Virus record (IMG/VR): IMGVR_UViG_3300042914_003231
Span: 1 to 64,000 of that record
From: a virus
Lineage: Duplodnaviria > Heunggongvirae > Uroviricota > Caudoviricetes
DNA length: 64,000 nucleotides
Strand: one strand, 5' to 3'
The notes under the pieces are model-generated. The model had not been told where the DNA came from. It worked only from the letters and a program-made list of their open reading frames with translations, and ran no database searches. Shown here piece after piece: positions 10,644 through 19,607 of the stretch. How positions within the stretch are numbered: position 1 is the stretch's first letter; each line of letters begins with the position of its first letter. A program made the translations under genes and the position numbers.

Positions 10644-11021
10644 AGTTTGAGTTGATTTTAGAGTTGATTAATAAAATGAGAGGGCTTTCTTTCGGTACCC
10701 TCTCTGACTTTACCTGCTTGCTAAGACTTTACTGTTGGCTCTCACATCCCAAAGCTATAAGGGAAAGGCACATGTTGTGTGTTTTCATACCTGGTCTTAA
10801 CCTGTTGATAGTACAACAGTGGTAGGCCCCAGTACACGCCTACTCTAATTCCGGTTATTGTATCAGCCGGTAGATTGTTAATAGATAGGTTCCCCATAAA
10901 GGGTTGGAAGTCAAAACGCTACACTTCCCGCCAGGGTGCGACCCTGTGTTTTCATCGAATGCCATGCTAAAGACCTAGAGGCGACCACCGTTACTAGATC
11001 TAGAGTTGATGCTAGAGTATA
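10644..11021. other. non-coding island (about 380 nt), GC-richer, several hairpins
   Basis: no ORF; hairpins gagggc...gccctc and cagggtgcgaccctg followed by a T-run. Confidence 0.3.
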
Positions 11022-11576
11022 TTAGAGTTCAAGTAATTTGTTGATATACAATACCATCTCCTTGTAAGTGATCAAGTGATTACCCAAGTATCTTTTGATC
11101 TTAGGCCACTCAGCCTTATACTTCTCATACATAGAGGAATTCTCTAGTAATGAGTACTTTATGTTTGCGATGATATCGCAGAGCTTAACAAACACAGCTA
11201 GTTCATTCTCGACTAGTGTCCGGTAGAACTCTTCATTCTTTCTTTCGGCCCTGTTCCTACCCCTCATCTCAGTACATAAGAAAATGATCTCGGCTAATTC
11301 TTCAGCCTCCTGTTGTGCCATTCCCTTCTTCCTACCTATCTCTATGATATCATTGTATGTAACCCGAGCATCTTCGATCATATCATGACCATAGCAAGCT
11401 GCCTTGACTAAGAACAGTTTATCTCCCGGTATTAGATGACTGAACTTTTTAGCTTGTGCATGCACATAGTGCAAGTGTTGGGAATAAGGTAGAACCTTAG
11501 CATACTTCTGGTTACATACCTCATCATGCCGGCTCATACACCAGTCCCTAAAGTATTCAAATGTTATAATATCCAT
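11022..11576 (-). CDS. HD-domain metal-dependent phosphohydrolase
   Basis: H...GHDMIED motif (HD then ED) as in SpoT/RelA-type HD hydrolases. Confidence 0.5.
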   Translation of the reverse strand: MDIITFEYFRDWCMSRHDEVCNQKYAKVLPYSQHLHYVHAQAKKFSHLIPGDKLFLVKAACYGHDMIEDARVTYNDIIEIGRKKGMAQQEAEELAEIIFLCTEMRGRNRAERKNEEFYRTLVENELAVFVKLCDIIANIKYSLLENSSMYEKYKAEWPKIKRYLGNHLITYKEMVLYINKLLEL

Positions 11577-11642
11577 GACTAATGGTTTTAGTAGTTAAAC
11601 AATGGGATGATATGGTATAGGCTCTATGAGAGCTCGTGTTAG

Positions 11643-11858
11643 TTAGTAATTATCAGCCATAGAAGCTAGTATAAGTATTGCACCAATGACTATTAGTATG
11701 ATGGCCAGTGGGAAACATAAGTTCCACCAGCTTAATACAGCTATGGTGACTAGCATAACTCTTGGTTTGATTTCGGTGGCGGTCTCTATATCATATAGAA
11801 TACCTGCTATTATACCTATAAGAGATAGAATAGCAATTGTTAAAATGATCTTGTCCAT
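11643..11858 (-). CDS. small membrane protein
   Basis: 71 aa, two hydrophobic helices. Confidence 0.4.
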   Translation of the reverse strand: MDKIILTIAILSLIGIIAGILYDIETATEIKPRVMLVTIAVLSWWNLCFPLAIILIVIGAILILASMADNY

Positions 11859-12173
11859 GGTTTATAGGTTTAAATGGTTATACAATAAGAGCTGAGTCAG
11901 CCTCGGTTAATATCTTTAAAGCTGTGGTGATCCTTTCCTACCTATATAAGGATATAGTAATAGGTATAGATATAGAGATAGTAGTATATAGGGTAATATC
12001 TTTAAGCAAGTAAACCTATTAGGTTTATTAGCTATATGGTGCACGCTCGCCTAAAGGGTGATTGAGGGCTTATTGATCATGGTATCAAAGTGTTGTAGGG
12101 AGTTCACCCCACCTCATGCACACTCTTTTCTTACACATTATCAACTAGTTAGCTGGTTTTTTGTTTGCTTTAG

Positions 12174-12356
12174 ACCTGATGAGATCTATTCAACCGGTGT
12201 TATTCTCCCTATATATAGAGATAAGATAACCACCAAGTACTAAACCTGACACAACTATGCGAAGAAATATTCAAAGTGTTTGTCCTATATATAGGGAAAC
12301 ATCTACCAACTATACCATAGACCTGATAAGACTATGCGAAGACTATTTAAAAACAC
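12174..12356. repeat. three degenerate direct repeats of about 50-55 bp (iteron-like)
   Basis: each copy begins acctga and carries actatgcgaaga and/or cctatatatag(g); an AT-rich tata tract lies upstream at 11935-12010. Confidence 0.55.
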
Positions 12357-12369
12357 AGTAGATACCAAG

Positions 12370-12416
12370 AAAAGAAAAAGAAAAGGAACATAGGGATATT
12401 ACTCCCTATATTCCTC
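12370..12416 (-). terminator. rho-independent terminator for the 12434-12883 gene
   Basis: hairpin agggatattactccct, then a T-rich stretch in the minus-strand reading direction. Confidence 0.45.
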
Positions 12417-12433
12417 TGTCCCCTCTTTATCTC

Positions 12434-12883
12434 CTACATTTTGTCAACACCGCCTTTAACAGCCGCATTCTTTGCTTGCAACTTGGCAATGTTAGCTGAG
12501 CGATTGCTAGCCAATGTGCCTGCAAAACGCTTTAGTTCAGCAAGCTTATCTTGTGCATAAGCTGCTTTGGTAGCCTCATCAGCACCGCTGATTAAGTCGG
12601 CCAATTGCTTCTCTACTGAGTTATCAGTAAACCAGATGATTTCTCCTGAAGCACTTACTGTACGCTCCAATGTTGCCGAAGTACCATACTTAACAGCGGC
12701 TTTTGCTGTGAAGTGGATTAATGGGTTGCCCTCATCGTCCTGACTGTCAATACCTTTAGCCAATTGGTCTTGGCGGTATTGTTCTGCACCCTCGCCAGTT
12801 ACCTTGTAACTAACCATTGGTGTTCCTGTTTCCTTAGCTTTGTAAGGATTTGGGTTGCTGATTGTGATTGTTTTCTTTTCCAT
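12434..12883 (-). CDS. hypothetical protein
   Basis: 149-aa ORF; CCAACTCAAA leader directly before the ATG. Confidence 0.55.
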   Translation of the reverse strand: MEKKTITISNPNPYKAKETGTPMVSYKVTGEGAEQYRQDQLAKGIDSQDDEGNPLIHFTAKAAVKYGTSATLERTVSASGEIIWFTDNSVEKQLADLISGADEATKAAYAQDKLAELKRFAGTLASNRSANIAKLQAKNAAVKGGVDKM

Positions 12884-12930
12884 TTTGAGTTGGTTTTTAA
12901 GTTATGACATTATTGTCAAGGTAGTTAATG

Positions 12931-12962
12931 GGATACAAGAGAAAGAAGATACAAGAGAAAGA
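12931..12962. repeat. 16-bp tandem repeat gatacaagagaaagaa x2
   Basis: overlaps the first copy of the atgggata motif. Confidence 0.7.
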
Positions 12963-13375
12963 ATACACACAGAAGAATGCACACAGGTAGCCATTGCTAT
13001 CCCATGTGCATGTCCATGACAACAAAGAACGATCACCTCAAGTCGAGGCAAATAGACCCATTGATCTTAACCACTGATTTCTTCAGTGATCTGGCCAGTG
13101 TGGTGGCTGAGTCTAATGATGGATATTGTGCTATATATTGTAGCACATGTTTGCTACTAGCCTTATCCCACACTTGTTTAAATACCTGATACATAAGCCT
13201 TTATTTAAGTTAGTTAATGTGATACTACAGCCATAACTATGGCCGAGTCAATAACAGCAAGCCAAAGCATTGCTATTATTTTTTTGATTACTGTCCAGTC
13301 CTTTGCATCAGATAATGCAACACCTAGACCTAATGATAGTGTTATCATAGCTTTAAGTTTTTGAATAACAGTGGA

Positions 13376-13579
13376 TTATTCTCCACTGTTATTTGAGTTA
13401 TCTTTATCCCAAGCATTGTGTCCTGCAATGCTGTTAGAGATGGTGCCGTCTATATTTCTATAGAATGACTGTTTACCTGTGTATCCTTCTTTAGGAGTGA
13501 ATGCTGGTCTTTGCTTTACAGGAGACTTGGTCTCTACTGATGGCACTTGCATGAAGCCGATTACTGGTACATTTCTCAT
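13376..13579 (-). CDS. hypothetical small protein
   Basis: 67-aa ORF, last of the leftward block. Confidence 0.3.
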   Translation of the reverse strand: MRNVPVIGFMQVPSVETKSPVKQRPAFTPKEGYTGKQSFYRNIDGTISNSIAGHNAWDKDNSNNSGE

Positions 13580-13740
13580 ATGATGTTGGTTTGTGTTAAA
13601 ATAATGATCAAGTGCTACAGGGTGTACATTCCCTGCTCACTATTCTAGGACTCCCTCTCGTAGGTGTATTAAGTAGTAGCCACGACTGGCCTTACTCCCC
13701 CGAATAGTCTCTCAGGATTTCTCCTGTCTTGAGCACTTGA

Positions 13741-13957
13741 TCAATCAAGTTGATGGGATAAAGAAGAAAGAATAGAGTAAGGTGATGAGTGGATCTCTCC
13801 ACTCGCGGCCTTATATAGTTTGTCGTTGCCCTACACATGCAACTATTAAGTATGCAGGGATCGTCCTTGGTTGGCTACATGCTCAAGGATGCATGGATGA
13901 CATGATACCATCTCATCAATCAAGTTCATGGGATAAAAAAAGACAGAACTTTTTCTC
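13741..13957. repeat. two copies of the 25-nt motif tcaatcaagtt(g/c)atgggataaa in the divergent region
   Basis: 13741-13765 and 13925-13949 match at 24 of 25 positions; a related copy gttaatgggatacaaga lies at 12924. Confidence 0.7.
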
Positions 13958-14012
13958 CAAGGAAAAAAGTTTCTTACCAGGCTGAATTAGGAAAATGTTT
14001 TTTTCAGACCCT

Positions 14013-14058
14013 GGGGGTAGGGGGTACTATGAAACACGGGGGGAGGTTGTTGGGGAGG
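14013..14058 (+). other. G-run tract with G-quadruplex potential
   Basis: GGGGG-ta-GGGGG-13 nt-GGGGGG-a-GG-ttgtt-GGGG-a-GG inside an otherwise AT-rich genome. Confidence 0.4.
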
Positions 14059-14140
14059 ACCCAATCCACAAACACTATTATGTAAAATACCCACCCCGGG
14101 ATATTATATTCTATTGATCAGGTATTGCTTATCTTAGAAT

Positions 14141-14902
14141 TTGAGTTATATTTGTCCTATGAAAAAAAGTACAATATGGGTTATTGTGGGACTGATAGGA
14201 GTCTTGCTTATTACCCTGGCTTGGATTATGATTTATTCTAAGCCTAAACCTATTCCGGATATAAAAAATGGAGTAACCTATCATAAGATTTATAATCATA
14301 CTAAGGATTCGGTATTGGTATGGGTTACTTTGGGGGCAACCCCGGGGTGTCTGCAGGATGTGACTAAGATACCTTTTGTTACTTCTGGATCAGGGTTAGT
14401 AGGATCCTTCTACCTAGCAGCTGGTGATTCTACTATTTGGTATGCACCGGACTCAGTTGGATTCAATGGAGTATTTAGCTTTAATTATCAGCCAGATAAC
14501 TGCCCAGCTCCTACGTATCCTAACGGTATTAACCAGTATGAGTTTATAGTGAACAATGCATTCCAAGCAGGACAACCTCAAGAGAGTATCAATATCTCAT
14601 GTGTTCATGGGGTGAACTGTGTTATTCGTGTAGATATAATTACTAGTAATCCATTTAATGCCGGCTCTAAAGTTCCTGTTGTGGAAAGCTTTGCTAATAC
14701 ACTTGATCGGAATCAACTTGGTATCCCTGGTGTATACCCGTATGCGTGCACACATTGTACAGACTACATAGGAGCCCCCGGCTGTATCTCTACTCCTCAG
14801 CCTGTTTCTAAAGAACAAATCTGCCAGGTACAAAGACCAGCTAACCAATCAGGAGGAATGATAAAAGTTATATATTTAGGAAATGAAGAACCTGCAAAAT
14901 AA
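14141..14902 (+). CDS. membrane-anchored Cys-containing protein
   Basis: N-terminal TM helix; first gene of the rightward block. Confidence 0.55.
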   Translation: MSYICPMKKSTIWVIVGLIGVLLITLAWIMIYSKPKPIPDIKNGVTYHKIYNHTKDSVLVWVTLGATPGCLQDVTKIPFVTSGSGLVGSFYLAAGDSTIWYAPDSVGFNGVFSFNYQPDNCPAPTYPNGINQYEFIVNNAFQAGQPQESINISCVHGVNCVIRVDIITSNPFNAGSKVPVVESFANTLDRNQLGIPGVYPYACTHCTDYIGAPGCISTPQPVSKEQICQVQRPANQSGGMIKVIYLGNEEPAK

Positions 14903-14903
14903 A

Positions 14904-14936
14904 TTTGCATAATTAAAAAAACTATATTATATTTGT
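14904..14936 (+). promoter_or_regulatory. candidate Bacteroidota-type promoter (TTTG -33 box, 21-nt spacer, TATATTTG -7 box)
   Basis: matches the TTTG-N19-21-TAnnTTTG consensus; located upstream of the tRNA array. Confidence 0.3.
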
Positions 14937-15047
14937 AACATGAAACTGTTTTTCTTATCGTTTAGTTGTTTATGGTATCTCTCACAAGGAGGCAGCCCGG
15001 GCATTTCATGATAGGTTTTTCATAGTTAAACATGATTAATTGACAAA

Positions 15048-15078
15048 ATCCCTGGGCTGATTACCCGGGGATTTTTTT
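15048..15078 (+). terminator. rho-independent terminator
   Basis: 9-bp stem atccctggg/cccggggat followed by a run of 8 T. Confidence 0.55.
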
Positions 15079-15151
15079 TGGACTCATAGCTCAGTAGGTA
15101 GAGCGCAGGACTGAAAATCCTGCCGCACTGGTTCGATTCCAGTTGAGTCCA
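15079..15151 (+). tRNA. tRNA-Phe (GAA)
   Basis: acceptor ggactca/tgagtcc, anticodon loop cuGAAaa, T-loop ggttcgattcc. Confidence 0.8.
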
Positions 15152-15156
15152 CACAA

Positions 15157-15239
15157 GCCGACACTGTAGAGTGGGAGATCTACACCAGACTGTAAATCTG
15201 GAGTCTTAGACTTTGGGAGTTCGAATCTCTCTGGCGGCA
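15157..15239 (+). tRNA. tRNA-Tyr (GTA), long variable arm
   Basis: anticodon stem ccaga/tctgg with loop ctGTAaa; one acceptor mismatch. Confidence 0.7.
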
Positions 15240-15244
15240 CAAAA

Positions 15245-15331
15245 GGAAGGTTGGCAGAGCCTGGCCGATTGCACCAGTCTTGAAAACTGGAGGTCCCTTG
15301 GATCCGTGAGTTCGAATCTCACACCTTCCTC
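15245..15331 (+). tRNA. tRNA-Ser (TGA), long variable arm
   Basis: acceptor ggaaggt/accttcc; loop ctTGAaa. Confidence 0.75.
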
Positions 15332-15333
15332 AA

Positions 15334-15371
15334 CATGCATAGAAAAATGCACTTTTCTATACATGTTTTTT
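15334..15371 (+). terminator. rho-independent terminator inside the tRNA array
   Basis: 13-bp stem catgcatagaaaa/ttttctatacatg followed by TTTTTT. Confidence 0.55.
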
Positions 15372-15392
15372 GAAAGTGCATAAAAACTATAC

Positions 15393-15440
15393 ATCTCTAG
15401 CTCAACTGGCGGAGCAGCGGTCTCCAAAACCATAAAGCAG
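15393..15440 (+). pseudogene. truncated tRNA-Trp-like fragment (D-arm plus anticodon arm only)
   Basis: tagctcaactggcggagc D-arm and ggtctccaaaacc shared with the intact tRNA-Trp downstream; no T-arm or acceptor 3' strand. Confidence 0.45.
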
Positions 15441-15469
15441 TTTGGATACTGAAGTAAAAACATGTATAT

Positions 15470-15817
15470 TTGTACATGCCTTCAAAAAATAAAGAAATAC
15501 TAAAAAAGCATAGAGATGCTTGGTATAAAAAGAATAAAAAAAAACAGATTACTAACCAGCTTGAAAAAAGACAGGAATTAAAGAAATGGTTTCAGGAATA
15601 TAAGAGATCATTATCTTGTAAAGAGTGTGGATTTAGCTTTGAATTATTTCCAGAATGTTGTGATTTCCATCACAGAGATGGAGATACAAAGAAAGATGTA
15701 GTAAGCAGATTGCTACCAATGGGAATAAAAGCACTAAAGAAAGAGATTGAAAAATGTGATCCTCTTTGTGCTAATTGTCATAGAAAGCTCCATGCAAAAT
15801 TAGAATATACAGGTTAG
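15470..15817 (+). CDS. HNH homing endonuclease
   Basis: CDFHHRDGD...N...LCANCHRKLH HNH motif. Confidence 0.8.
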   Translation: MYMPSKNKEILKKHRDAWYKKNKKKQITNQLEKRQELKKWFQEYKRSLSCKECGFSFELFPECCDFHHRDGDTKKDVVSRLLPMGIKALKKEIEKCDPLCANCHRKLHAKLEYTG

Positions 15818-15880
15818 CTTATTGGAAGCACCAGGTCTCCAAAACCTCGGATGGAAGGAGTTCGATTCTCTTAACCTGTG
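15809..15880 (+). tRNA. tRNA-Trp (CCA)
   Basis: acceptor acaggtt/aacctgt, loop cuCCAaa, T-loop ttcgatt; overlaps the HNH stop codon. Confidence 0.6.
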
Positions 15881-15885
15881 CACAA

Positions 15886-15957
15886 GGTACCGTGGGTGAG
15901 GGGTTTAGCCTCAGGTCTGCAAAACCTGCTACGTCTGTTCGAATCAGACCGGTACCT
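15886..15957 (+). tRNA. tRNA-Cys (GCA)
   Basis: acceptor ggtaccg/cggtacc, anticodon stem caggt/acctg, loop ctGCAaa. Confidence 0.75.
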
Positions 15958-15958
15958 C

Positions 15959-16174
15959 ATGAAAGAGATAGATGAAGAGTTCAACTTACTTCAGTTGTAC
16001 ATCTATGATTGCATCAACCGGATGTGTTTGAATGCATACATAGATAAGACTAAGTGTTCTCATCACCCTTTGTATACTTTTGAAGAATACAAAACGGCAA
16101 TATGGGATCCTTGGACTGGAGAGACTGTAGCAAGTAGAACAAGATGGGCTTTAAATATTAAGCCTTTATTTTAG
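15959..16174 (+). CDS. hypothetical small protein embedded in the tRNA array
   Basis: 71 aa starting at the first ATG after tRNA-Cys; its stop codon abuts tRNA-Ser. Confidence 0.4.
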   Translation: MKEIDEEFNLLQLYIYDCINRMCLNAYIDKTKCSHHPLYTFEEYKTAIWDPWTGETVASRTRWALNIKPLF

Positions 16175-16257
16175 AGAAGTGGCTGAGTGGCTTAAGGCAC
16201 CGCACTGCTAACGCGGAGGATGTAACAGTTCCACCGGTTCGAATCCGGTCTTCTCTG
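16173..16257 (+). tRNA. tRNA-Ser (GCT), long variable arm
   Basis: acceptor agagaag/cttctct; loop ctGCTaa. Confidence 0.7.
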
Positions 16258-16262
16258 CAAAT

Positions 16263-16343
16263 GCCCATATGGTGGAATGGTAGACGCGCTGGTCTTAGGA
16301 ACCAGTACCGTAAGGTATGTAGGTTCGAGTCCTACTATGGGTA
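16263..16343 (+). tRNA. tRNA-Leu (TAG)
   Basis: anticodon stem ctggt/accag, loop ctTAGga, long variable arm. Confidence 0.75.
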
Positions 16344-16348
16344 CATAT

Positions 16349-16431
16349 ACTCCTGTGGTGTAATTGGTAGCCGCGCTAGGCTTAAGACTCAGTGGACTTA
16401 GTCCGTGCCGGTTCGAGTCCGGCCAGGAGTA
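16349..16431 (+). tRNA. tRNA-Leu (TAA)
   Basis: acceptor actcctg/caggagt; loop ctTAAga; long variable arm. Confidence 0.7.
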
Positions 16432-16682
16432 CTTTGCTCACCTGATTAATAAAGTGACCAAAAATTATTACACTGTCTACCAATCAGTTAGACCTTCTGA
16501 AGAAAATATTTTTGGTAGACTCAAACAAACCTATTATATTTGTCTTGCAAATGAAACGCATACAACATATCCAGATGGCCAATACAGGCAGAAATACGGT
16601 GGAGATTAAAGATCCGACCGTGTCCATGGGTGTTGCATGTAGTTTTAGATAAGACATTTTTAGTTAGCTAAACCGCATTAAA

Positions 16683-16709
16683 CCCCTGGACAAGTTCTAG
16701 GGGTTTTTT
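16683..16709 (+). terminator. rho-independent terminator
   Basis: stem cccctgg/ctagggg followed by TTTTTT. Confidence 0.55.
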
Positions 16710-16718
16710 GTTTTACCC

Positions 16719-16791
16719 CGGGATGTAGATCAGTTGGTAGATTGCGTGCTTTGGGAGCATGAGGTCGCAGGTTCGAGCCCTGTCATCCCGA
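16719..16791 (+). tRNA. tRNA-Pro (TGG)
   Basis: acceptor cgggatg/catcccg; loop ttTGGga. Confidence 0.75.
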
Positions 16792-16847
16792 CTAGCAGAA
16801 GTGGTACTCCAGTGCCCGTACTGAAAACCAAACAAAACTGGAGACAT

Positions 16848-16920
16848 GGGGTTCAAGCACAAGCGGACGTGCATTAGCTTTGCAAGCTAGAGGATCTCGG
16901 TTCGAGGCCGAGGAGCTCCA
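16848..16920 (+). tRNA. tRNA-Ala (TGC) with G3:U70
   Basis: acceptor ggggttc/gagctcc carrying the G3:U70 wobble identity pair; D-arm gcac-aagcggac-gtgc; loop ttTGCaa; T-arm ctcgg-ttcgagg-ccgag. Confidence 0.65.
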
Positions 16921-16921
16921 C

Positions 16922-17083
16922 ATGAATGAAGAACTATATAATTGGCTGGAGAAGATGTTTATGTTCTCCAATATCCCTAAGTACAGGAAGTACTTTAAGG
17001 AATGGGTGGACAACATAACTGAAGATCAGATCACCGGTTTTCAGAGAATGATGGGAGCCAACTATAAGATTAAGCAGGAATAG
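16922..17083 (+). CDS. hypothetical small protein embedded in the tRNA array
   Basis: 53 aa, from the first ATG after tRNA-Ala; its stop codon overlaps the start of tRNA-Gly. Confidence 0.35.
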   Translation: MNEELYNWLEKMFMFSNIPKYRKYFKEWVDNITEDQITGFQRMMGANYKIKQE

Positions 17084-17148
17084 CTCATCCTTGGTAGAGC
17101 TCCAGTCTTCCAAACTGGAGGTGGCGAGTTCGAGCCTCGCTTCCTGCT
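17074..17148 (+). tRNA. tRNA-Gly (TCC)
   Basis: acceptor gcaggaa/ttcctgc; loop ctTCCaa. Confidence 0.75.
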
Positions 17149-17331
17149 CACAACTGCAGTGCCCATGTACAGTGGGGGTACAATCACTGCAGGTAGAAGA
17201 GTGCTAAGAAATCCGGTGTTGGGTTAGCTCTGGACACTAAGGTAAGGAGTGGGTAAGGACCACAGTCCCCGTCTAACAGGGACAAAGTTTTGCAAAAGCC
17301 TTCCCTGGGATGGAGCACTCTTCATGATATT

Positions 17332-17407
17332 GGTCTGTTAGGGGAGTCCGGCCGTCCCTACCTCACTGTCTATGAGGGGATCACGGGTTCGAATCCCGTA
17401 CAGACCG
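17332..17407 (+). tRNA. tRNA-Asp (GTC)
   Basis: acceptor ggtctgt/acagacc; anticodon stem cctca/tgagg, loop ctGTCta. Confidence 0.7.
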
Positions 17408-17518
17408 CTGGGCGGTAGTCTAATGAGCAGGGTTAGTAGCGTGCTGACTAACTAGTCTTAGGACGATCATCTTATGGGATGATAGATATCAGTAACCATT
17501 CTGATCTGCCCCACCAAT

Positions 17519-17590
17519 TGCCCCTTAGCTCAGCGGTAGAGCAAAACCCTGTTAAGGTTGAGGTCCTAGGTTCAATCCCTAGAGGGGCAG
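17519..17590 (+). tRNA. tRNA-Asn (GTT)
   Basis: acceptor tgcccct/aggggca; loop ctGTTaa. Confidence 0.7.
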
Positions 17591-17595
17591 CAAAT

Positions 17596-17670
17596 AGACG
17601 AGTAGCTCAGCCTGGTTAGAGCGCCCGCCTGATACGCGGAGGGTCACAGGTTCAAATCCTGTCTTGTCTA
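17596..17670 (+). tRNA. tRNA-Ile (GAT)
   Basis: loop ctGATac; T-loop ttcaaat. Confidence 0.7.
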
Positions 17671-17727
17671 CTTTGGGACCGTTTGGTAGTGACATAGTCT
17701 TGAACTAGATCATAGAAACTATCACAT

Positions 17728-17800
17728 AGGAGTATAGCTCAGTTGGGAGAGCATCCGGTTTACATCCGGACGGTCCAAGGTTCGAGTCCTTGTATTCCTA
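17728..17800 (+). tRNA. tRNA-Val (TAC)
   Basis: anticodon stem tccgg/ccgga, loop ttTACat. Confidence 0.75.
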
Positions 17801-17885
17801 CAAACTTTAAAGATTTAAACTTATAATGTTTACACTATTAAAATATAAGGTTATAAAGAGAAGGATAAAACCTTAACTCATTATT

Positions 17886-17957
17886 CCCTCATAGCTTAGT
17901 GGTAAAGCAGTATACTTTTAATATACGGAGCGGCAGTTCGATTCTGCCTGGGGGAAC
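17886..17957 (+). tRNA. tRNA-Lys (TTT)
   Basis: perfect anticodon stem gtata/tatac, loop ctTTTaa. Confidence 0.75.
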
Positions 17958-17963
17958 TTTAAA

Positions 17964-18035
17964 CCCCCGTAGCTCAATGGAAGAGTAAGAGACTTCTAAG
18001 CTCAAGGTTACCAGTTCGAGTCTGGTCGGGGGTTC
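17964..18035 (+). tRNA. tRNA-Arg (TCT)
   Basis: acceptor acccccg/cgggggt; loop ctTCTaa (anticodon stem imperfect). Confidence 0.6.
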
Positions 18036-18041
18036 TGAATA

Positions 18042-18114
18042 GGCCCTTAGCTCAGTTGGTTAGAGCAGTACTCTTATAAGGTAAAGGTCACCGGTTCAAA
18101 CCCGGTAGGGCCTA
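18042..18114 (+). tRNA. tRNA-Ile (TAT), reads AUA
   Basis: acceptor aggccct/agggcct; loop ctTATaa. Confidence 0.6.
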
Positions 18115-18124
18115 CATAATATTT

Positions 18125-18199
18125 AGCGGGGTGACTGGAGTTGGTTCCAGCACAGCCTCATAAACTGTACAGACGCGGGTTCGAGTCCCGCCCCCGCTA
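18125..18199 (+). tRNA. tRNA-Met (CAT)
   Basis: acceptor agcgggg/ccccgct; loop ctCATaa. Confidence 0.7.
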
Positions 18200-18265
18200 C
18201 AATGAGTGCTAATGACACCTGATAAAGGAGGGGATATATTACCAGGTCCCCCGACACTCAGTAAC

Positions 18266-18337
18266 GCTCCCATCATCTAGGGGTCAGGATATCAGGTTTT
18301 CGACCTGAGCACCAGGGTTCGAATCCCTGTGGGAGTA
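18266..18337 (+). tRNA. tRNA-Glu (TTC)
   Basis: anticodon stem tcagg/cctga, loop ttTTCga. Confidence 0.7.
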
Positions 18338-18342
18338 CTTAA

Positions 18343-18415
18343 GCTTGAGTAGCACAATTGGTAGTGCACCTCCCTTGTAAGGAGAAGGTTGTCAGTTCGA
18401 GTCTGACCTCAAGCT
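18343..18415 (+). tRNA. tRNA-Thr (TGT)
   Basis: acceptor gcttgag/ctcaagc; loop ctTGTaa. Confidence 0.75.
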
Positions 18416-18417
18416 CT

Positions 18418-18491
18418 GTGTCTGTAGAGGAATTGGTAGACTCCCCGGAATGTGGATCCGGTGCTTGTGGGTTCAAGTCCCATCAGACACC
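18418..18491 (+). tRNA. tRNA-His (GTG)
   Basis: acceptor gtgtctg/cagacac; anticodon stem ccgga/tccgg, loop atGTGga. Confidence 0.7.
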
Positions 18492-18497
18492 CCATTA

Positions 18498-18571
18498 GTT
18501 CTCATAGCTCAATTGGATAGAGTCCTTGACTACGGATCAAGAGGTTGAAGGTTCGACTCCTTCTGAGAACA
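18498..18571 (+). tRNA. tRNA-Arg (ACG)
   Basis: acceptor gttctca/tgagaac; anticodon stem cttga/tcaag, loop ctACGga. Confidence 0.75.
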
Positions 18572-18576
18572 CATAA

Positions 18577-18647
18577 TGCCCTTTCGTCTAACGGCAGGAC
18601 CTGTGGTTTTGGGCCACATGATCGAGGTTCGAATCCTTGAGGGGCAA
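18577..18647 (+). tRNA. tRNA-Gln (TTG)
   Basis: anticodon stem tgtgg/ccaca, loop ttTTGgg. Confidence 0.65.
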
Positions 18648-18716
18648 CTAGTTTTTTATTGTTTGCACATCCAAAGTTTTTTTGTATATTAGCAATAATT
18701 TTCATATATTATTAAT

Positions 18717-19607
18717 ATGGATGTAGTAAACTTTGATGCTCTCAAAGCACAGGGCAAAATTATAAAAATATCAGATGTGAATCCTGATGAGGATTACTTC
18801 ATCATTGGTCATTATGATCCGCGAAGAAGAGAATTTAAAGCTACTGATTACCCTATCTATGCTATAAAAGCACGTGATGTTTTAAATTCTTCAAATGCTT
18901 TTAATAATCCTTTTGATTTCTATTTAGATGGTAATGCTCCTGCAGGAGGGGATGGCTCAGCAAGTAATCCTTTTAATTTATTTTCTCAAGCCGTTGCCTA
19001 TATTAATACACTTCCTTCAGCAACATATACTCTATATGTATTGCCGTACAGTTATACAGAATCATCCCCGGTTATTAATCTACCAAACAATTCTGCTCTA
19101 AATATAATAGGAGTAGTAGCTAATTCTTGTAGCTTTAATTTTAATGTACAATTTACCGCAATACCAGCTTCCTCATATGCTGTATGGTATGAAAATATTG
19201 CTTTTAGTAATTTTGAACTAGATCTTTCTTTAGCATCTTTTGCTTCTATATCCTTTACAGGTTCTAAGGTAGATCTTATAAGAACAGATTCTAATCCTTC
19301 TACTATAGTGACATTACAAGGTGCAATGTTTGCCTCTACCCTTTCCGGTAGAGTTTTATGGTTAAATGGTGTAATGTTTGGTGATATTAATGTTCAAACA
19401 AATGGTGAGTTGTTTTGTAATACGGTATTACAACTACAAGGACAATTTAAGTTAACAGGATCTGCTAAGTTAAAAACTTTAAGTATGCCAAACCCTACAC
19501 CTAATGGTGTAGATGGTATTCCTGTAGGTTTGAATATACCGGTTTGGAGAACTGATGCTGCAAGTGATGAAACTTTTACAGGAACTCTTACAAAAATAAT
19601 ATATTAA
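18717..19607 (+). CDS. tail-fibre-like structural protein (paralog 1)
   Basis: N-terminal 60 aa closely resemble the next ORF (MDVVNFDALKAQGKIIKISD versus MEILNIESLIAQGKILKASE ...DYxIIG...Y.IKA.D). Confidence 0.55.
   Translation: MDVVNFDALKAQGKIIKISDVNPDEDYFIIGHYDPRRREFKATDYPIYAIKARDVLNSSNAFNNPFDFYLDGNAPAGGDGSASNPFNLFSQAVAYINTLPSATYTLYVLPYSYTESSPVINLPNNSALNIIGVVANSCSFNFNVQFTAIPASSYAVWYENIAFSNFELDLSLASFASISFTGSKVDLIRTDSNPSTIVTLQGAMFASTLSGRVLWLNGVMFGDINVQTNGELFCNTVLQLQGQFKLTGSAKLKTLSMPNPTPNGVDGIPVGLNIPVWRTDAASDETFTGTLTKIIY

Follow-up and report, generated by a model that had tools for sequence, protein, structure and literature searches.

The 64,000-nucleotide (nt) stretch of phage DNA analysed here (positions 1 to 64,000 of IMG/VR virus record IMGVR_UViG_3300042914_003231; Caudoviricetes), hereafter the window, carries an array of 24 transfer RNA (tRNA) genes that make up a complete, non-redundant set and are split into two units, each of which is probably controlled by a ribosome-mediated attenuator that samples the codons read by the tRNAs of its own unit. 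In both units, a promoter-like element is followed by a short open reading frame (ORF), an intrinsic terminator and the tRNA genes, and a continuous run of codons in the short ORF falls into all the codon boxes served by the tRNAs downstream, and into no others. The array had been recognized in an earlier, sequence-only reading; that observation is correct and, taken alone, ordinary for a large phage. The surroundings of the array appear to hold a regulatory design that, apparently, has not been described and that has strong statistical and comparative support.

The tRNA array and its two leader ORFs

ARAGORN detects 24 tRNA genes, all on the + strand, at 15080-18648 and none elsewhere in the 64-kilobase (kb) window. 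The Rfam model RF00005 (gathering score, 29 bits) recovers the same 24 genes with scores from 30.8 to 74.3 bits, the weakest match being Trp(CCA) at 15809-15880 (30.8 bits). All 20 amino acids are covered, and the isotypes and anticodons, 13 of the latter with T at position 34, are identical to those listed in the sequence-only reading, which had proposed the ARAGORN run as a check. With 24 genes in 3.57 kb (6.7 tRNA genes per kb), the array falls under the definition of a viral tRNA gene cluster, that is, 15 or more tRNA genes in a virus genome, with a minimum density of 2 per kb (PMC6409571). The phage origin of the array, assumed in the same reading, is borne out by genes for TerL, portal and the major head protein that are encoded downstream (PHROG). 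The capsid protein is 22-28% identical to those of a Leptolyngbya phage and of crAss-like, Flavobacterium and Cellulophaga phages. Shine-Dalgarno motifs are depleted (2 of 51 ORFs versus a 14% background), and TAnnTTTG motifs lie directly upstream of several genes; judged from the sequence, the expression signals in the window are of the Bacteroidota type.

Unit A consists of 8 tRNA genes, in the order Phe, Tyr, Ser(UCN), Trp, Cys, Ser(AGY), Leu(CUN) and Leu(UUR). Unit B consists of 16, of which the first half are Pro, Ala, Gly, Asp, Asn, Ile, Val and Lys and the second half Arg(AGR), Ile(AUA), Met, Glu, Thr, His, Arg(CGN) and Gln. Each unit is headed by a TTTG/TAnnTTTG element, then the mini-ORF (leader), and then the terminator, which lies about 110-130 nt downstream of the element and abuts the first tRNA gene, with no promoter space in between (Table 1). 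Both elements are promoter-like and resemble the -33/-7 type of Bacteroidota. Of the 14 leaders compared in this work, 12 have TAnnTTTG 4-10 nt upstream of the start codon, and in 10 a TTTG precedes this motif by 19-20 nt. What is known of Bacteroides and Flavobacterium promoters would place the start codon of the leader at or very near the 5' end of the transcript. The leader mRNAs are thus predicted to be leaderless, with transcription starting near the start codon, which would fit a Shine-Dalgarno-poor system and tight coupling of ribosome and polymerase.

The sequence-only reading held that at least three rho-independent terminators punctuate the interior of the array. One strong internal terminator was found (16680-16706 plus T-run, with an 11-base-pair stem); the others are weak, such as the terminator-like hairpin at 16146-16165, or lie at the array edge, where a hairpin plus T8 that is equally good occupies about 15045-15079 at the 5' end. 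An AT-rich palindrome plus T6 is present at 15332-15371. Terminator-like matches in the scanned region show no excess (4 observed versus 4.7 expected from shuffles). What survives of the punctuation are two good hairpins with U-runs, which are better read as two attenuators, one per sub-array.

The key evidence is the codon content of the leaders. Codons 3-15 of leader 1 (CTG TTT TTC TTA TCG TTT AGT TGT TTA TGG TAT CTC TCA) cover all 8 boxes read by unit A (TTY, TTR, CTN, TCN, AGY, TGY, TGG and TAY) and no others, both Ser boxes and both Leu boxes being represented. Codons 1-24 of leader 2 likewise cover all 16 boxes read by unit B and no others, the two Arg tRNAs being represented by CGC and AGA, and those with anticodons TAT, GAT and CAT by ATA, ATC/ATT and ATG, respectively. 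The uninterrupted in-set runs comprise 13 codons in leader 1 (8/8 boxes) and 23 codons after the start codon in leader 2 (16/16). When codons are drawn at random at the phage frequencies, all 16 boxes are covered by 24 codons with a probability of 3e-5 and all 8 boxes by 13 codons with a probability of 2e-5, and none of the sliding windows of real phage genes (about 14,300 and about 14,800) contained an in-set run covering all boxes. With shuffles that preserve composition, all boxes are covered at frequencies of 1.8e-4 for the leader 2 segment and 1.3e-3 for the leader 1 segment; given the latter value, and because AGT and CTG/CTC are not T-initial, we rejected the possibility that the composition of leader 1 is a by-product of T-richness. 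Four leaders were tested by simulation of the observed runs: three had 0 occurrences in 300,000, and the fourth had a chance of 3e-6. In a swap test, the sensor runs matched their own sub-array and not the other sub-array of the same phage.

A megablast search among 50,697 phage records yielded no relatives of the array, only single-tRNA matches. Public assemblies contain more than 100 homologs of the gene that immediately precedes the array (14141-14902), the downstream gene (18717-19607) has no match in IMG/VR, and the 10-kb flanks examined at the loci of TerL relatives do not reach the array. The relatives are IMG/VR viral contigs of about 122-128 kb, in which the content of the slot varies. 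L039 (the same phage as L053, a 128.5-kb contig) has 23 tRNA genes in the order of the window; L042 and L043 have 20, without Ile2, Met, Glu and Thr; L054 has at least 20 in the same slot. Three tRNA genes occupy it in L047 and L048 (Phe, Tyr, Gln) and in L049 and L050 (Pro, Phe, Gln), and none in L044, L045, L046, L051 and L052. Because the content differs so widely between relatives, the array is an accessory, fast-changing module.

Homologous leader ORFs are present in all related arrays, and each of the ten leaders in the clade of the window contains codons for all boxes read by the tRNAs detected behind it (8/8, 16/16, 15/15, 12/12, 3/3; in L041, the tRNA run ends at the contig end, after three tRNAs). 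Across this clade, the box set is conserved and the order of the amino acids is not. Leader 1 of L039 has the run CLYWSLFS (TGT CTA TAT TGG AGT TTG TTT TCA), 8 codons with one for each downstream tRNA, and leader 2 of L054 packs all 14 amino acids of its unit into 19 residues. The small arrays have correspondingly narrow leaders: ..NNFFPQQPFFAP.. (FFPQQPFF) in L049, with Pro, Phe and Gln downstream, and MRQSLFFSYYWLQS.. (LFFSYYWLQ) in L047, with Phe, Tyr and Gln. The N-terminus of leader 2, MK(R/H)xQHI, is partly conserved.

The same arrangement was found outside of this clade, where four leaders from two independent lineages sample nearly all of the boxes read downstream. In Cellulophaga phage phi4:1 (NC_021788.1), leader 1 (MKIQRLHLQELEQP..) contains the run QRLHLQELEQP, 11 codons that cover all 7 boxes, and is followed by a terminator and by tRNAs for Pro, Glu, Gln, His, Leu(TAG), Leu(TAA) and Arg(ACG). 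The leader 2 stretch of this phage (..TKTGITVIDKTKGARAY..) lies in-frame within gp075, annotated as a hypothetical protein, and precedes a terminator and tRNAs for Ala, Lys, Ile, Gly, Met, Asp, Thr, Val, Arg(TCT), CAT and Tyr. The terminators of the two phi4:1 leaders are located at about 87,094-87,130 and about 88,133-88,165 of NC_021788.1. The metagenomic phage L056, reached via a homolog of the HNH endonuclease described below, shows a weaker match: leader I samples 13 of the 14 amino acids served downstream, and leader II (..LRLYSCLLSL..) precedes Cys, Leu, Arg(ACG) and Leu as well as two sequences that by eye are tRNA-like (anticodon loops GTA and TGA) and are called neither by ARAGORN nor by Rfam. 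The array of the crAss-like IAS virus (NC_049978.1) has no matching leader; its first tRNA is directly preceded by a plain promoter, and the small ORFs found in the gaps of this array show no correspondence to the tRNAs. Thus, the device is not universal, and the method does not find it everywhere.

Several observations on these loci are recorded here in their own right. The annotated TTG start of gp075 (L058 4990-5109) is located inside the promoter motif, and the phi4:1 coding sequence gp076 (L058 7118-7219) overlies what by eye is a tRNA-Ser(TGA)-like sequence. The IAS virus record (L059 2463-4861) annotates 18 tRNAs on the strand opposite to the one where ARAGORN gives sensible anticodons. 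The Pro-to-Gly gap of L039 (11941-12087) contains a sequence resembling tRNA-Ala (TTGCA loop, GGTTCGATTCC T-arm), which is not called by either ARAGORN or Rfam; leader 2 of L039 retains Ala codons. Among the family-box sensor codons of the leaders in the window, L039, L041, L042, L047, L049, L054, L056 and L058, 48% end in G or C, compared with roughly 13-18% in most family boxes of the phage genes; these are either rare codons chosen for sensitivity or a consequence of the G+C needed by the RNA structures.

A predicted RNA switch and the alternatives to it

The minimum-energy fold of the free leader 1 RNA contains the terminator. Masking the RNA as if a ribosome had stalled at codon 6 or 10 leads to an antiterminator, in which CAGCCCGGGC is paired with the 5' arm of the terminator; a mask placed at codon 14 or the stop codon restores the terminator. 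Co-transcriptional folds were obtained by folding each leader without the 3' arm of its terminator, the arms of three leaders being set by hand. All 14 leaders have an intrinsic terminator (hairpin plus U-run) between the leader ORF and the tRNAs, and in all 14, when the 3' arm is absent and the ribosome is in the sensor codons, the partner of the 5' arm is a segment from the 3' part of the leader ORF, whereas a ribosome at the stop codon masks this segment and leaves the 5' arm free. The fraction of shuffles with a duplex energy at or below the observed one ranges from 0.000 to 0.14 and is below 0.05 for 9 of the 14 leaders. The paired strands differ together between leaders (AGCCCGGGC/CCCUGGGCU, ACAGGG/CCCUGU, UGGCGGGG/CCUCGCCA, CUGGGGG/CCCCCGG, GGGAGGU/GCCUCUC and UAGAGGG/CCCUCUA). 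Of the features that define a ribosome-mediated attenuator, the short ORF, the matching regulatory codons and the intrinsic terminator are all present, as is an exclusive antiterminator, the latter in silico only; control of amino acid biosynthesis or aminoacyl-tRNA synthetase genes is not, the regulated genes being tRNAs.

We propose that the leaders mediate transcription attenuation via the ribosome and act as multi-codon (polyvalent) sensors of decoding. When all sampled codons are decoded promptly, the ribosome would reach the stop codon and cover the antiterminator segment, so that the terminator would form and the tRNA genes would stay largely off. Should any of the required aminoacyl-tRNAs be scarce, the ribosome would stall in the sensor codons, the antiterminator would form, and the polymerase would read into the tRNA genes. 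Possible triggers are host shut-off, defence nucleases that cleave tRNAs, and a host tRNA supply that matches poorly. The tRNA products of the unit would then relieve the stall, resulting in negative feedback and on-demand expression. More generally, it is rather likely that, in some phages with hosts of the Bacteroidota type, the tRNA array operates as a closed-loop sensor of decoding, where the loss or shortage of any single host tRNA switches on a replacement set.

A number of points weigh against this model. Equilibrium switching is seen in only 4 of the first 10 leaders (leader 1 of the window and three others), and the remaining 6 would need the usual co-transcriptional argument; some of the duplexes are not significant compared with shuffles (0.097, 0.14). 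The match between codons and tRNAs has imperfections as well. Leader 2 of L042 keeps ATA, ATG, Glu and Thr codons although the four respective tRNAs are missing downstream, and the leader of L047 retains Ser, Leu and Trp codons. In L056, leader I lacks Ala and includes Leu and Trp, and leader II fits well only when the two by-eye tRNA-like sequences are counted. Leader 2 of phi4:1 has no ATG (a GTG start is assumed), and the distal Ser, Asn, Trp and Phe tRNAs of this phage are not sampled by its leaders. The homologous leaders are not independent, so that there are effectively three lineages. We infer the translation of the mini-ORFs and the transcription start sites, as well as the switching itself and its physiological trigger. 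Furthermore, amino acid starvation would stall the ribosome too, and extra tRNA could not relieve such a stall.

Codon compensation is the textbook explanation for U34 tRNAs of the T4 type. Under this explanation, the array would be a plain one, expressed constitutively or within the normal programme, with the hairpins serving as ordinary terminators or processing signals and the mini-ORFs being meaningless. It agrees with the AT-richness of the phage (GC content of 0.31-0.46 in the window) and with the plain promoter of the IAS virus array. The sequence-only reading, too, took the U34 anticodons to serve the A-ending codons of an AT-rich phage, and a check of codon usage upholds this for part of the code: in all two-codon purine boxes, and only there, A exceeds G (60-66%). 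Elsewhere, the expectation fails. Across 57 ORFs (16,843 codons), third positions are T in 42%, A in 32%, C in 13% and G in 13%, and in 6 of the 7 family boxes with a U34 tRNA, NNT rather than NNA is used most. The 13 U34 anticodons are required by the complete one-per-box design itself, so that their number alone does not argue for a bias towards A-ending codons; the set takes in every box exactly once instead of selecting among them, and synonymous-codon compensation cannot explain the tRNAs for Trp and Met, single-codon amino acids without a synonymous dimension. Plain expression is also hard to reconcile with terminators that leave no room for a promoter, and meaningless mini-ORFs with a composition that tracks the tRNAs in three lineages, with a chance of at most about 3e-6 per leader. 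We therefore consider codon compensation, reviewed as an explanation of phage tRNAs in PMC10264068, unlikely. It is very unlikely, in our assessment, that the mini-ORFs encode small functional peptides under their own promoter and terminator, the tRNAs being expressed by leaky read-through. Other small genes are embedded in the array (the 53-amino-acid ORF kept in L054, and the HNH gene) and the N-terminus of leader 2 is partly conserved, but between the window and either L039 or L054 the order of residues diverges freely while the box set is kept, and the composition follows the partition of tRNAs specific to each phage. In addition, the ORF always holds the complement of the terminator arm in its 3' part, and this complement differs together with the arm.

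Mobility and defence offer two further explanations. The array could be a selfish mobile module, in which homing endonucleases carry tRNA genes from one co-infecting phage to another and gene conversion, not selection for decoding, shapes the content. The HNH gene does lie beside a dead native tRNA-Trp gene and a foreign-looking replacement, its closest homologs adjoin tRNA-Trp or are located inside tRNA arrays of other phages, and SegB provides a precedent (PMC2330249). However, the HNH gene is absent from the arrays of L039, L042 and L054, where the gene order is the same, so arrays are maintained without an endonuclease; the exact one-per-box completeness, together with leaders that match, implies that decoding function is under selection. 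This explanation appears quite unlikely. The remaining one concerns the selective driver and is compatible with attenuation: the array would be an anti-defence reserve of nuclease-insensitive replacement tRNAs, with the attenuators as the trigger. Phage tRNAs counter tRNA-cleaving defences in the T5, T4 and T6 systems (PMC10264068, PMC11555353, PMC13096335), the array is accessory (0, 3, 20, 23 or 24 tRNAs in the slot), and its association with a homing endonuclease is paralleled by SegB at anti-defence tRNA loci (PMC13096335). A reserve of this kind would require just such a sensor, one that reports when any one tRNA species is lost, but a supply mismatch or phage-induced host shut-off would trip the same sensor. 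We regard an anti-defence role as quite possible, if short of probable; the results are compatible with the suggestion of the sequence-only reading that the tRNAs compensate for host supply or counter host defence, and lend it indirect strength.

Anticodon set, embedded genes and structured RNAs

The 24 anticodons fill 24 different codon boxes with one tRNA each: U34 anticodons in seven family boxes, ACG in the Arg CGN box, G34 in seven NNY boxes and U34 in five NNR boxes, the remaining members being Ile GAT and TAT, Met CAT and Trp CCA. With four-way decoding by U34 (described in PMC11571807), this set reads 60 of the 61 sense codons, none of them twice and without miscoding, and the only unread codon, CGG, accounts for 3% of the Arg codons of the phage. 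Decoding of the xo5U type allows 53 codons to be read, and strict Crick wobble 46 of 61. By eye, an initiator tRNA was not seen in the set: the only CAT tRNA is elongator-like, with A1-U72 paired and without GGG/CCC in the anticodon stem, and the set therefore depends on the host initiator. Accordingly, the array is a minimal decoding set as far as one tRNA per box with U34 in family boxes is concerned, and is not self-sufficient when the initiator is included.

tRNA-Ile(TAT) at 18041-18115 is the positional ortholog of a CAT tRNA in L039, L053 and L054, which is presumed to be a lysidine-dependent tRNA-Ile2; given this replacement, the window has switched AUA decoding to a UAU tRNA. The apparent C34-to-U change would free AUA decoding from lysidine synthetase. 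Ile(TAT) also occurs in the unrelated arrays of L056 and the IAS virus. By eye, a G27-A43 mismatch in tRNA-Ile(TAT) is common to the L039 copy. The low-scoring tRNA-Met(CAT) (43.2 bits) has a C31-A39 mismatch, with A31-C39 in its L039 ortholog, and tRNA-His (18417-18494), unlike most tRNAs of the array, has an encoded CCA; its position -1 is T, not G, so that G-1 is apparently not encoded in the genome (all by eye).

The HNH gene matches PHROG 3106 and 2255 ('HNH endonuclease', E = 1e-21) and contains the invariant motif CxxC..DFHH..N..CxxCH..H; its product has no Pfam match. Presence of this gene between Ser(TGA) and Trp is polymorphic, with absence in L039, L042 and L054. The nearest homologs adjoin tRNA-Trp in L055 and L057 and lie inside a 19-tRNA array in L056. 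From its organization, the locus looks like intron-less homing at a tRNA gene. We rejected the reading of the Trp fragment upstream of the HNH gene as half of a tRNA-Trp split by an intron or by HNH insertion: its acceptor strand (acatctc) mismatches the downstream Trp (acaggtt/aacctgt), and the fragment aligns lengthwise to the intact Trp of L039 and L042, with the T-arm deleted. By eye, the AT-rich palindrome at 15332-15386 can form two mutually exclusive hairpins. The array contains two further ORFs, of 71 and 53 amino acids, the stop codon of each of which overlaps the next tRNA. The latter ORF is 80% identical to its L054 counterpart at the nucleotide level, with 19 of the 33 differences at third codon positions, that is, divergence of the coding type. 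By analogy with mitochondrial tRNA punctuation, tRNA processing might release nearly leaderless mRNAs for both ORFs.

The 182-nt spacer between tRNA-Gly and tRNA-Asp folds far better than shuffled sequences (z = -4.3) and holds a 133-nt structured RNA. Pattern searches of IMG/VR, metagenomes and GTDB genomes retrieved only 4 distinct copies, each in a different array and none in GTDB genomes, and 689 kb of related loci scanned with a covariance model yielded no further copy. Of the 38 pairs predicted by RNAalifold, 15 show compensatory changes; 96% of the cells are paired compared with 39-48% when the partners are slid by 1-3 columns, and none of 500 shuffles reach the observed values on 4 of 5 measures. 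There is no Rfam match at E of 5 or below. The invariant hairpin loop CGNCUAACA was considered as a CUA (amber suppressor) anticodon arm; this was rejected given that there is no T-arm, cloverleaf, or match to a tRNA or tmRNA model. The loop GGGUUAG of a hairpin in the Asp-to-Asn spacer is the motif of the P2 loop of the 133-nt RNA; this spacer is absent in L054 and, in L039, is replaced by a stretch with a remnant of a tRNA T-arm. The Met-to-Glu spacer is more conserved than the flanking tRNAs and carries sigma-70-like ATGACA and TATATT separated by 17 nt. The AT-rich core of the Val-to-Lys spacer could be an internal promoter or a protein-binding site.

Two side observations concern other contigs with homologs of the flanking gene. 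A candidate permuted tmRNA (ARAGORN prediction) is located directly upstream of the conserved flanking gene in L049 and L050 (6507-6934). In L051, a 141-kb JGI contig, Cas7-like and Cas3-like genes lie near the homolog of the flanking gene (10926-14630) and may belong to a phage-borne CRISPR-Cas system.

Table 1. Features of the tRNA array and its leader regions in the window (tRNA scores are for RF00005; all tRNAs were also called by ARAGORN)
Feature	Position	Strand	Comment
Promoter-like element 1	14904..14935	+	TTTG 14904-14907, 20-nt gap, TATATTTG 14928-14935; 4 nt before leader 1 ATG
Leader ORF 1, MKLFFLSFSCLWYLSQGGSPGIS*	14940..15011	+	codons 3-15 at 14946-14984
Predicted antiterminator segment 1, CAGCCCGGGCAUUUC, leader nt 54-68	14993..15007	+	pairs with 5' arm of terminator 1; masked by ribosome at stop
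Putative attenuator terminator 1, AAAAUCCCUGGG / CCCGGGGAUUUU + U-run	15045..15079	+	tRNA-Phe begins at next base
tRNA-Phe (GAA)	15080..15152	+	74.3 bits
tRNA-Tyr (GTA)	15157..15240	+	41.2 bits
tRNA-Ser (TGA)	15245..15331	+	52.0 bits
AT-rich palindrome + T-run	15332..15386	+	between Ser(TGA) and Trp; also L042 8977-9031, upstream of intact tRNA-Trp
Ancestral tRNA-Trp pseudogene	15389..15450	+	5' part through anticodon loop almost identical to L039, L042 Trp; T-arm deleted
Freestanding HNH endonuclease gene, 113 amino acids	15476..15817	+	own TAnnTTTG at 15465; 3' end overlaps replacement tRNA-Trp
tRNA-Trp (CCA), divergent replacement copy	15809..15881	+	30.8 bits; weakest in array
tRNA-Cys (GCA)	15886..15958	+	51.9 bits
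Inserted 71-amino-acid ORF	15959..16174	+	no family match; absent from L039, L042; ATG 2 nt after tRNA-Cys discriminator
tRNA-Ser (GCT)	16173..16258	+	52.3 bits
tRNA-Leu (TAG)	16263..16344	+	56.2 bits
tRNA-Leu (TAA)	16349..16432	+	43.4 bits
Promoter-like element 2	16511..16542	+	TTTG 16511-16514, 20-nt gap, TATATTTG 16535-16542; 8 nt before leader 2 ATG
Leader ORF 2, MKRIQHIQMANTGRNTVEIKDPTVSMGVACSFR*	16551..16652	+	codons 1-24 at 16551-16622
Predicted antiterminator segment 2, GUGUCCAUGGGUG, leader nt 70-82	16620..16632	+	pairs with 5' arm of terminator 2
Putative attenuator terminator 2, AAACCCCUGGA / UCUAGGGGUUU + U-run	16680..16716	+	tRNA-Pro begins 16719
tRNA-Pro (TGG)	16719..16792	+	63.2 bits
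tRNA-Ala (TGC)	16848..16921	+	46.6 bits
53-amino-acid ORF	16922..17083	+	conserved in L054; absent from L039, L042; ATG 2 nt after tRNA-Ala discriminator; overlaps tRNA-Gly start
tRNA-Gly (TCC)	17074..17149	+	59.8 bits
Variable hairpin upstream of 133-nt RNA	17154..17192	+	hairpin in 4/4 copies (by eye); sequence not conserved
Conserved structured RNA, 133 nt	17193..17325	+	between tRNA-Gly and tRNA-Asp; six helices, four covarying
tRNA-Asp (GTC)	17332..17408	+	49.7 bits
Candidate second structured spacer RNA, 110 nt, Asp-to-Asn	17409..17518	+	near-identical in L042 save two compensatory hairpins (by eye)
tRNA-Asn (GTT)	17519..17591	+	64.2 bits
tRNA-Ile (GAT)	17596..17671	+	64.3 bits
tRNA-Val (TAC)	17728..17801	+	67.3 bits
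Conserved AT-rich Val-to-Lys spacer	17802..17884	+	core TTTAAAYTT..ATGTTTACACTA in window, L039, L042
tRNA-Lys (TTT)	17885..17957	+	66.5 bits
tRNA-Arg (TCT)	17963..18035	+	58.2 bits
tRNA-Ile (TAT)	18041..18115	+	67.1 bits
tRNA-Met (CAT)	18125..18200	+	43.2 bits
Met-to-Glu spacer, 65 nt	18201..18265	+	hairpin GGGGAU/GUCCCC; L029 compensatory GAGGAU/GUCCUC
tRNA-Glu (TTC)	18266..18338	+	56.8 bits
tRNA-Thr (TGT)	18343..18416	+	67.9 bits
tRNA-His (GTG)	18418..18494	+	52.1 bits; CCA encoded
tRNA-Arg (ACG)	18498..18572	+	64.8 bits
tRNA-Gln (TTG)	18577..18648	+	50.7 bits

Implications and comparison with known systems

The purpose of phage tRNA genes has been debated for about fifty years, with codon compensation, host shut-off and, lately, escape from tRNA-cleaving immunity as the main ideas. 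A leader that reads out exactly the codons served by an array would tell what the array responds to, namely, decoding failure, species by species. If the proposed model is correct, these would be, as far as we could find, the first tRNA genes under leader-peptide attenuation and the first leaders that monitor many tRNA species, up to 16 at once, rather than one amino acid. Phage tRNAs would then represent an inducible response to decoding failure and not a constitutive supplement to codon bias, ribosome-mediated attenuation would extend to RNA genes and to many-codon sensing, and the leaders would be natural biosensors that report how available each tRNA is. The question can be tested directly, since a phage-host pair in culture, Cellulophaga phage phi4:1 with C. 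baltica, has this device too. For annotation, the rule would be that tiny hypothetical proteins ahead of phage tRNA clusters, such as gp075 of phi4:1, may be regulatory leaders. Of secondary importance, the one-per-box set bears on minimal-translation design, and the 133-nt RNA on the biology of phage non-coding RNAs.

Stable RNAs other than tRNAs are encoded within the tRNA region of phage T4 as well, where they are known as species 1 and 2. The 133-nt RNA is reminiscent of these and, like them, lies among tRNAs and presumably is released by tRNA processing; it differs in that it has no detectable similarity to any Rfam family. The tRNA region of T4 shares with the window a freestanding homing endonuclease in the tRNA cluster (PMC2330249, PMC13096335), but SegB belongs to the GIY-YIG family and the enzyme in the window to the HNH family, and T4 has 8 tRNAs. 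Among the larger phage tRNA clusters (those of T5, mycobacteriophage clusters C and M, Cellulophaga phages and XacN1), the likeness lies in the dense, same-strand arrangement of at least 15 tRNA genes in a large phage of the virulent type, interspersed with HNH genes and hypothetical small ORFs. Homing endonucleases have already been described in phage tRNA regions (PMC2330249, PMC13096335), and HNH genes specifically in phage tRNA clusters (PMC6409571). All 20 isotypes are present in a minority of the known phage clusters, 8 in the survey of Morgado and Vicente (2019, PMC6409571); the array in the window differs from these clusters in being exactly non-redundant and split in two units, each with a leader ORF and a terminator.

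As a decoding set, the array resembles the minimal sets of organelles and Mollicutes, for example, that of the apicoplast (10.1101/2024.12.21.629855), with one U34 tRNA per family box, G34 and U34 in split boxes, ACG for Arg and about 24 species. Unlike these sets, it has no visible initiator and belongs to a phage, the host of which supplies a full set, and AUA in the window is read by UAU instead of a lysidine tRNA; AUA decoding without lysidine has been described (PMC3919564).

With respect to regulation, T-box riboswitches are similar in that failed charging or supply of tRNA is sensed and antitermination is the response. A T-box, however, binds a single uncharged tRNA, functions without translation and controls aminoacyl-tRNA synthetase or amino acid genes, whereas the device proposed here would employ the ribosome and sample many codons.

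To our knowledge, leader-peptide attenuation, a classical mechanism, is known only for amino acid and aminoacyl-tRNA synthetase operons. A full-text literature search, the coverage of which was incomplete, found no published case of such attenuation of tRNA genes or arrays, and the Rfam leader families did not match the leaders in the window (best, His_leader with E=4.5 and rnk_leader with E=1.1). The nature of the regulated genes and the lack of an Rfam match set the window leaders apart from all described leader families. Nevertheless, it is the leader-peptide attenuators (trpL, hisL, leuL, pheL, thrL, ilvL, pheST, Bacteroid-trp and related Rfam leaders) with which the predicted architecture agrees: an ORF with regulatory codons, a terminator, and an alternative antiterminator, the upstream strand of which is covered by a ribosome at the stop codon. 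The differences are that tRNAs are regulated here, as opposed to biosynthetic or synthetase genes; that 3 to 16 codon boxes are sampled, mostly once or twice each, in place of runs for one or two amino acids; that the mRNA in the window is apparently leaderless; and that the output would directly supply the very molecule whose lack is sensed.

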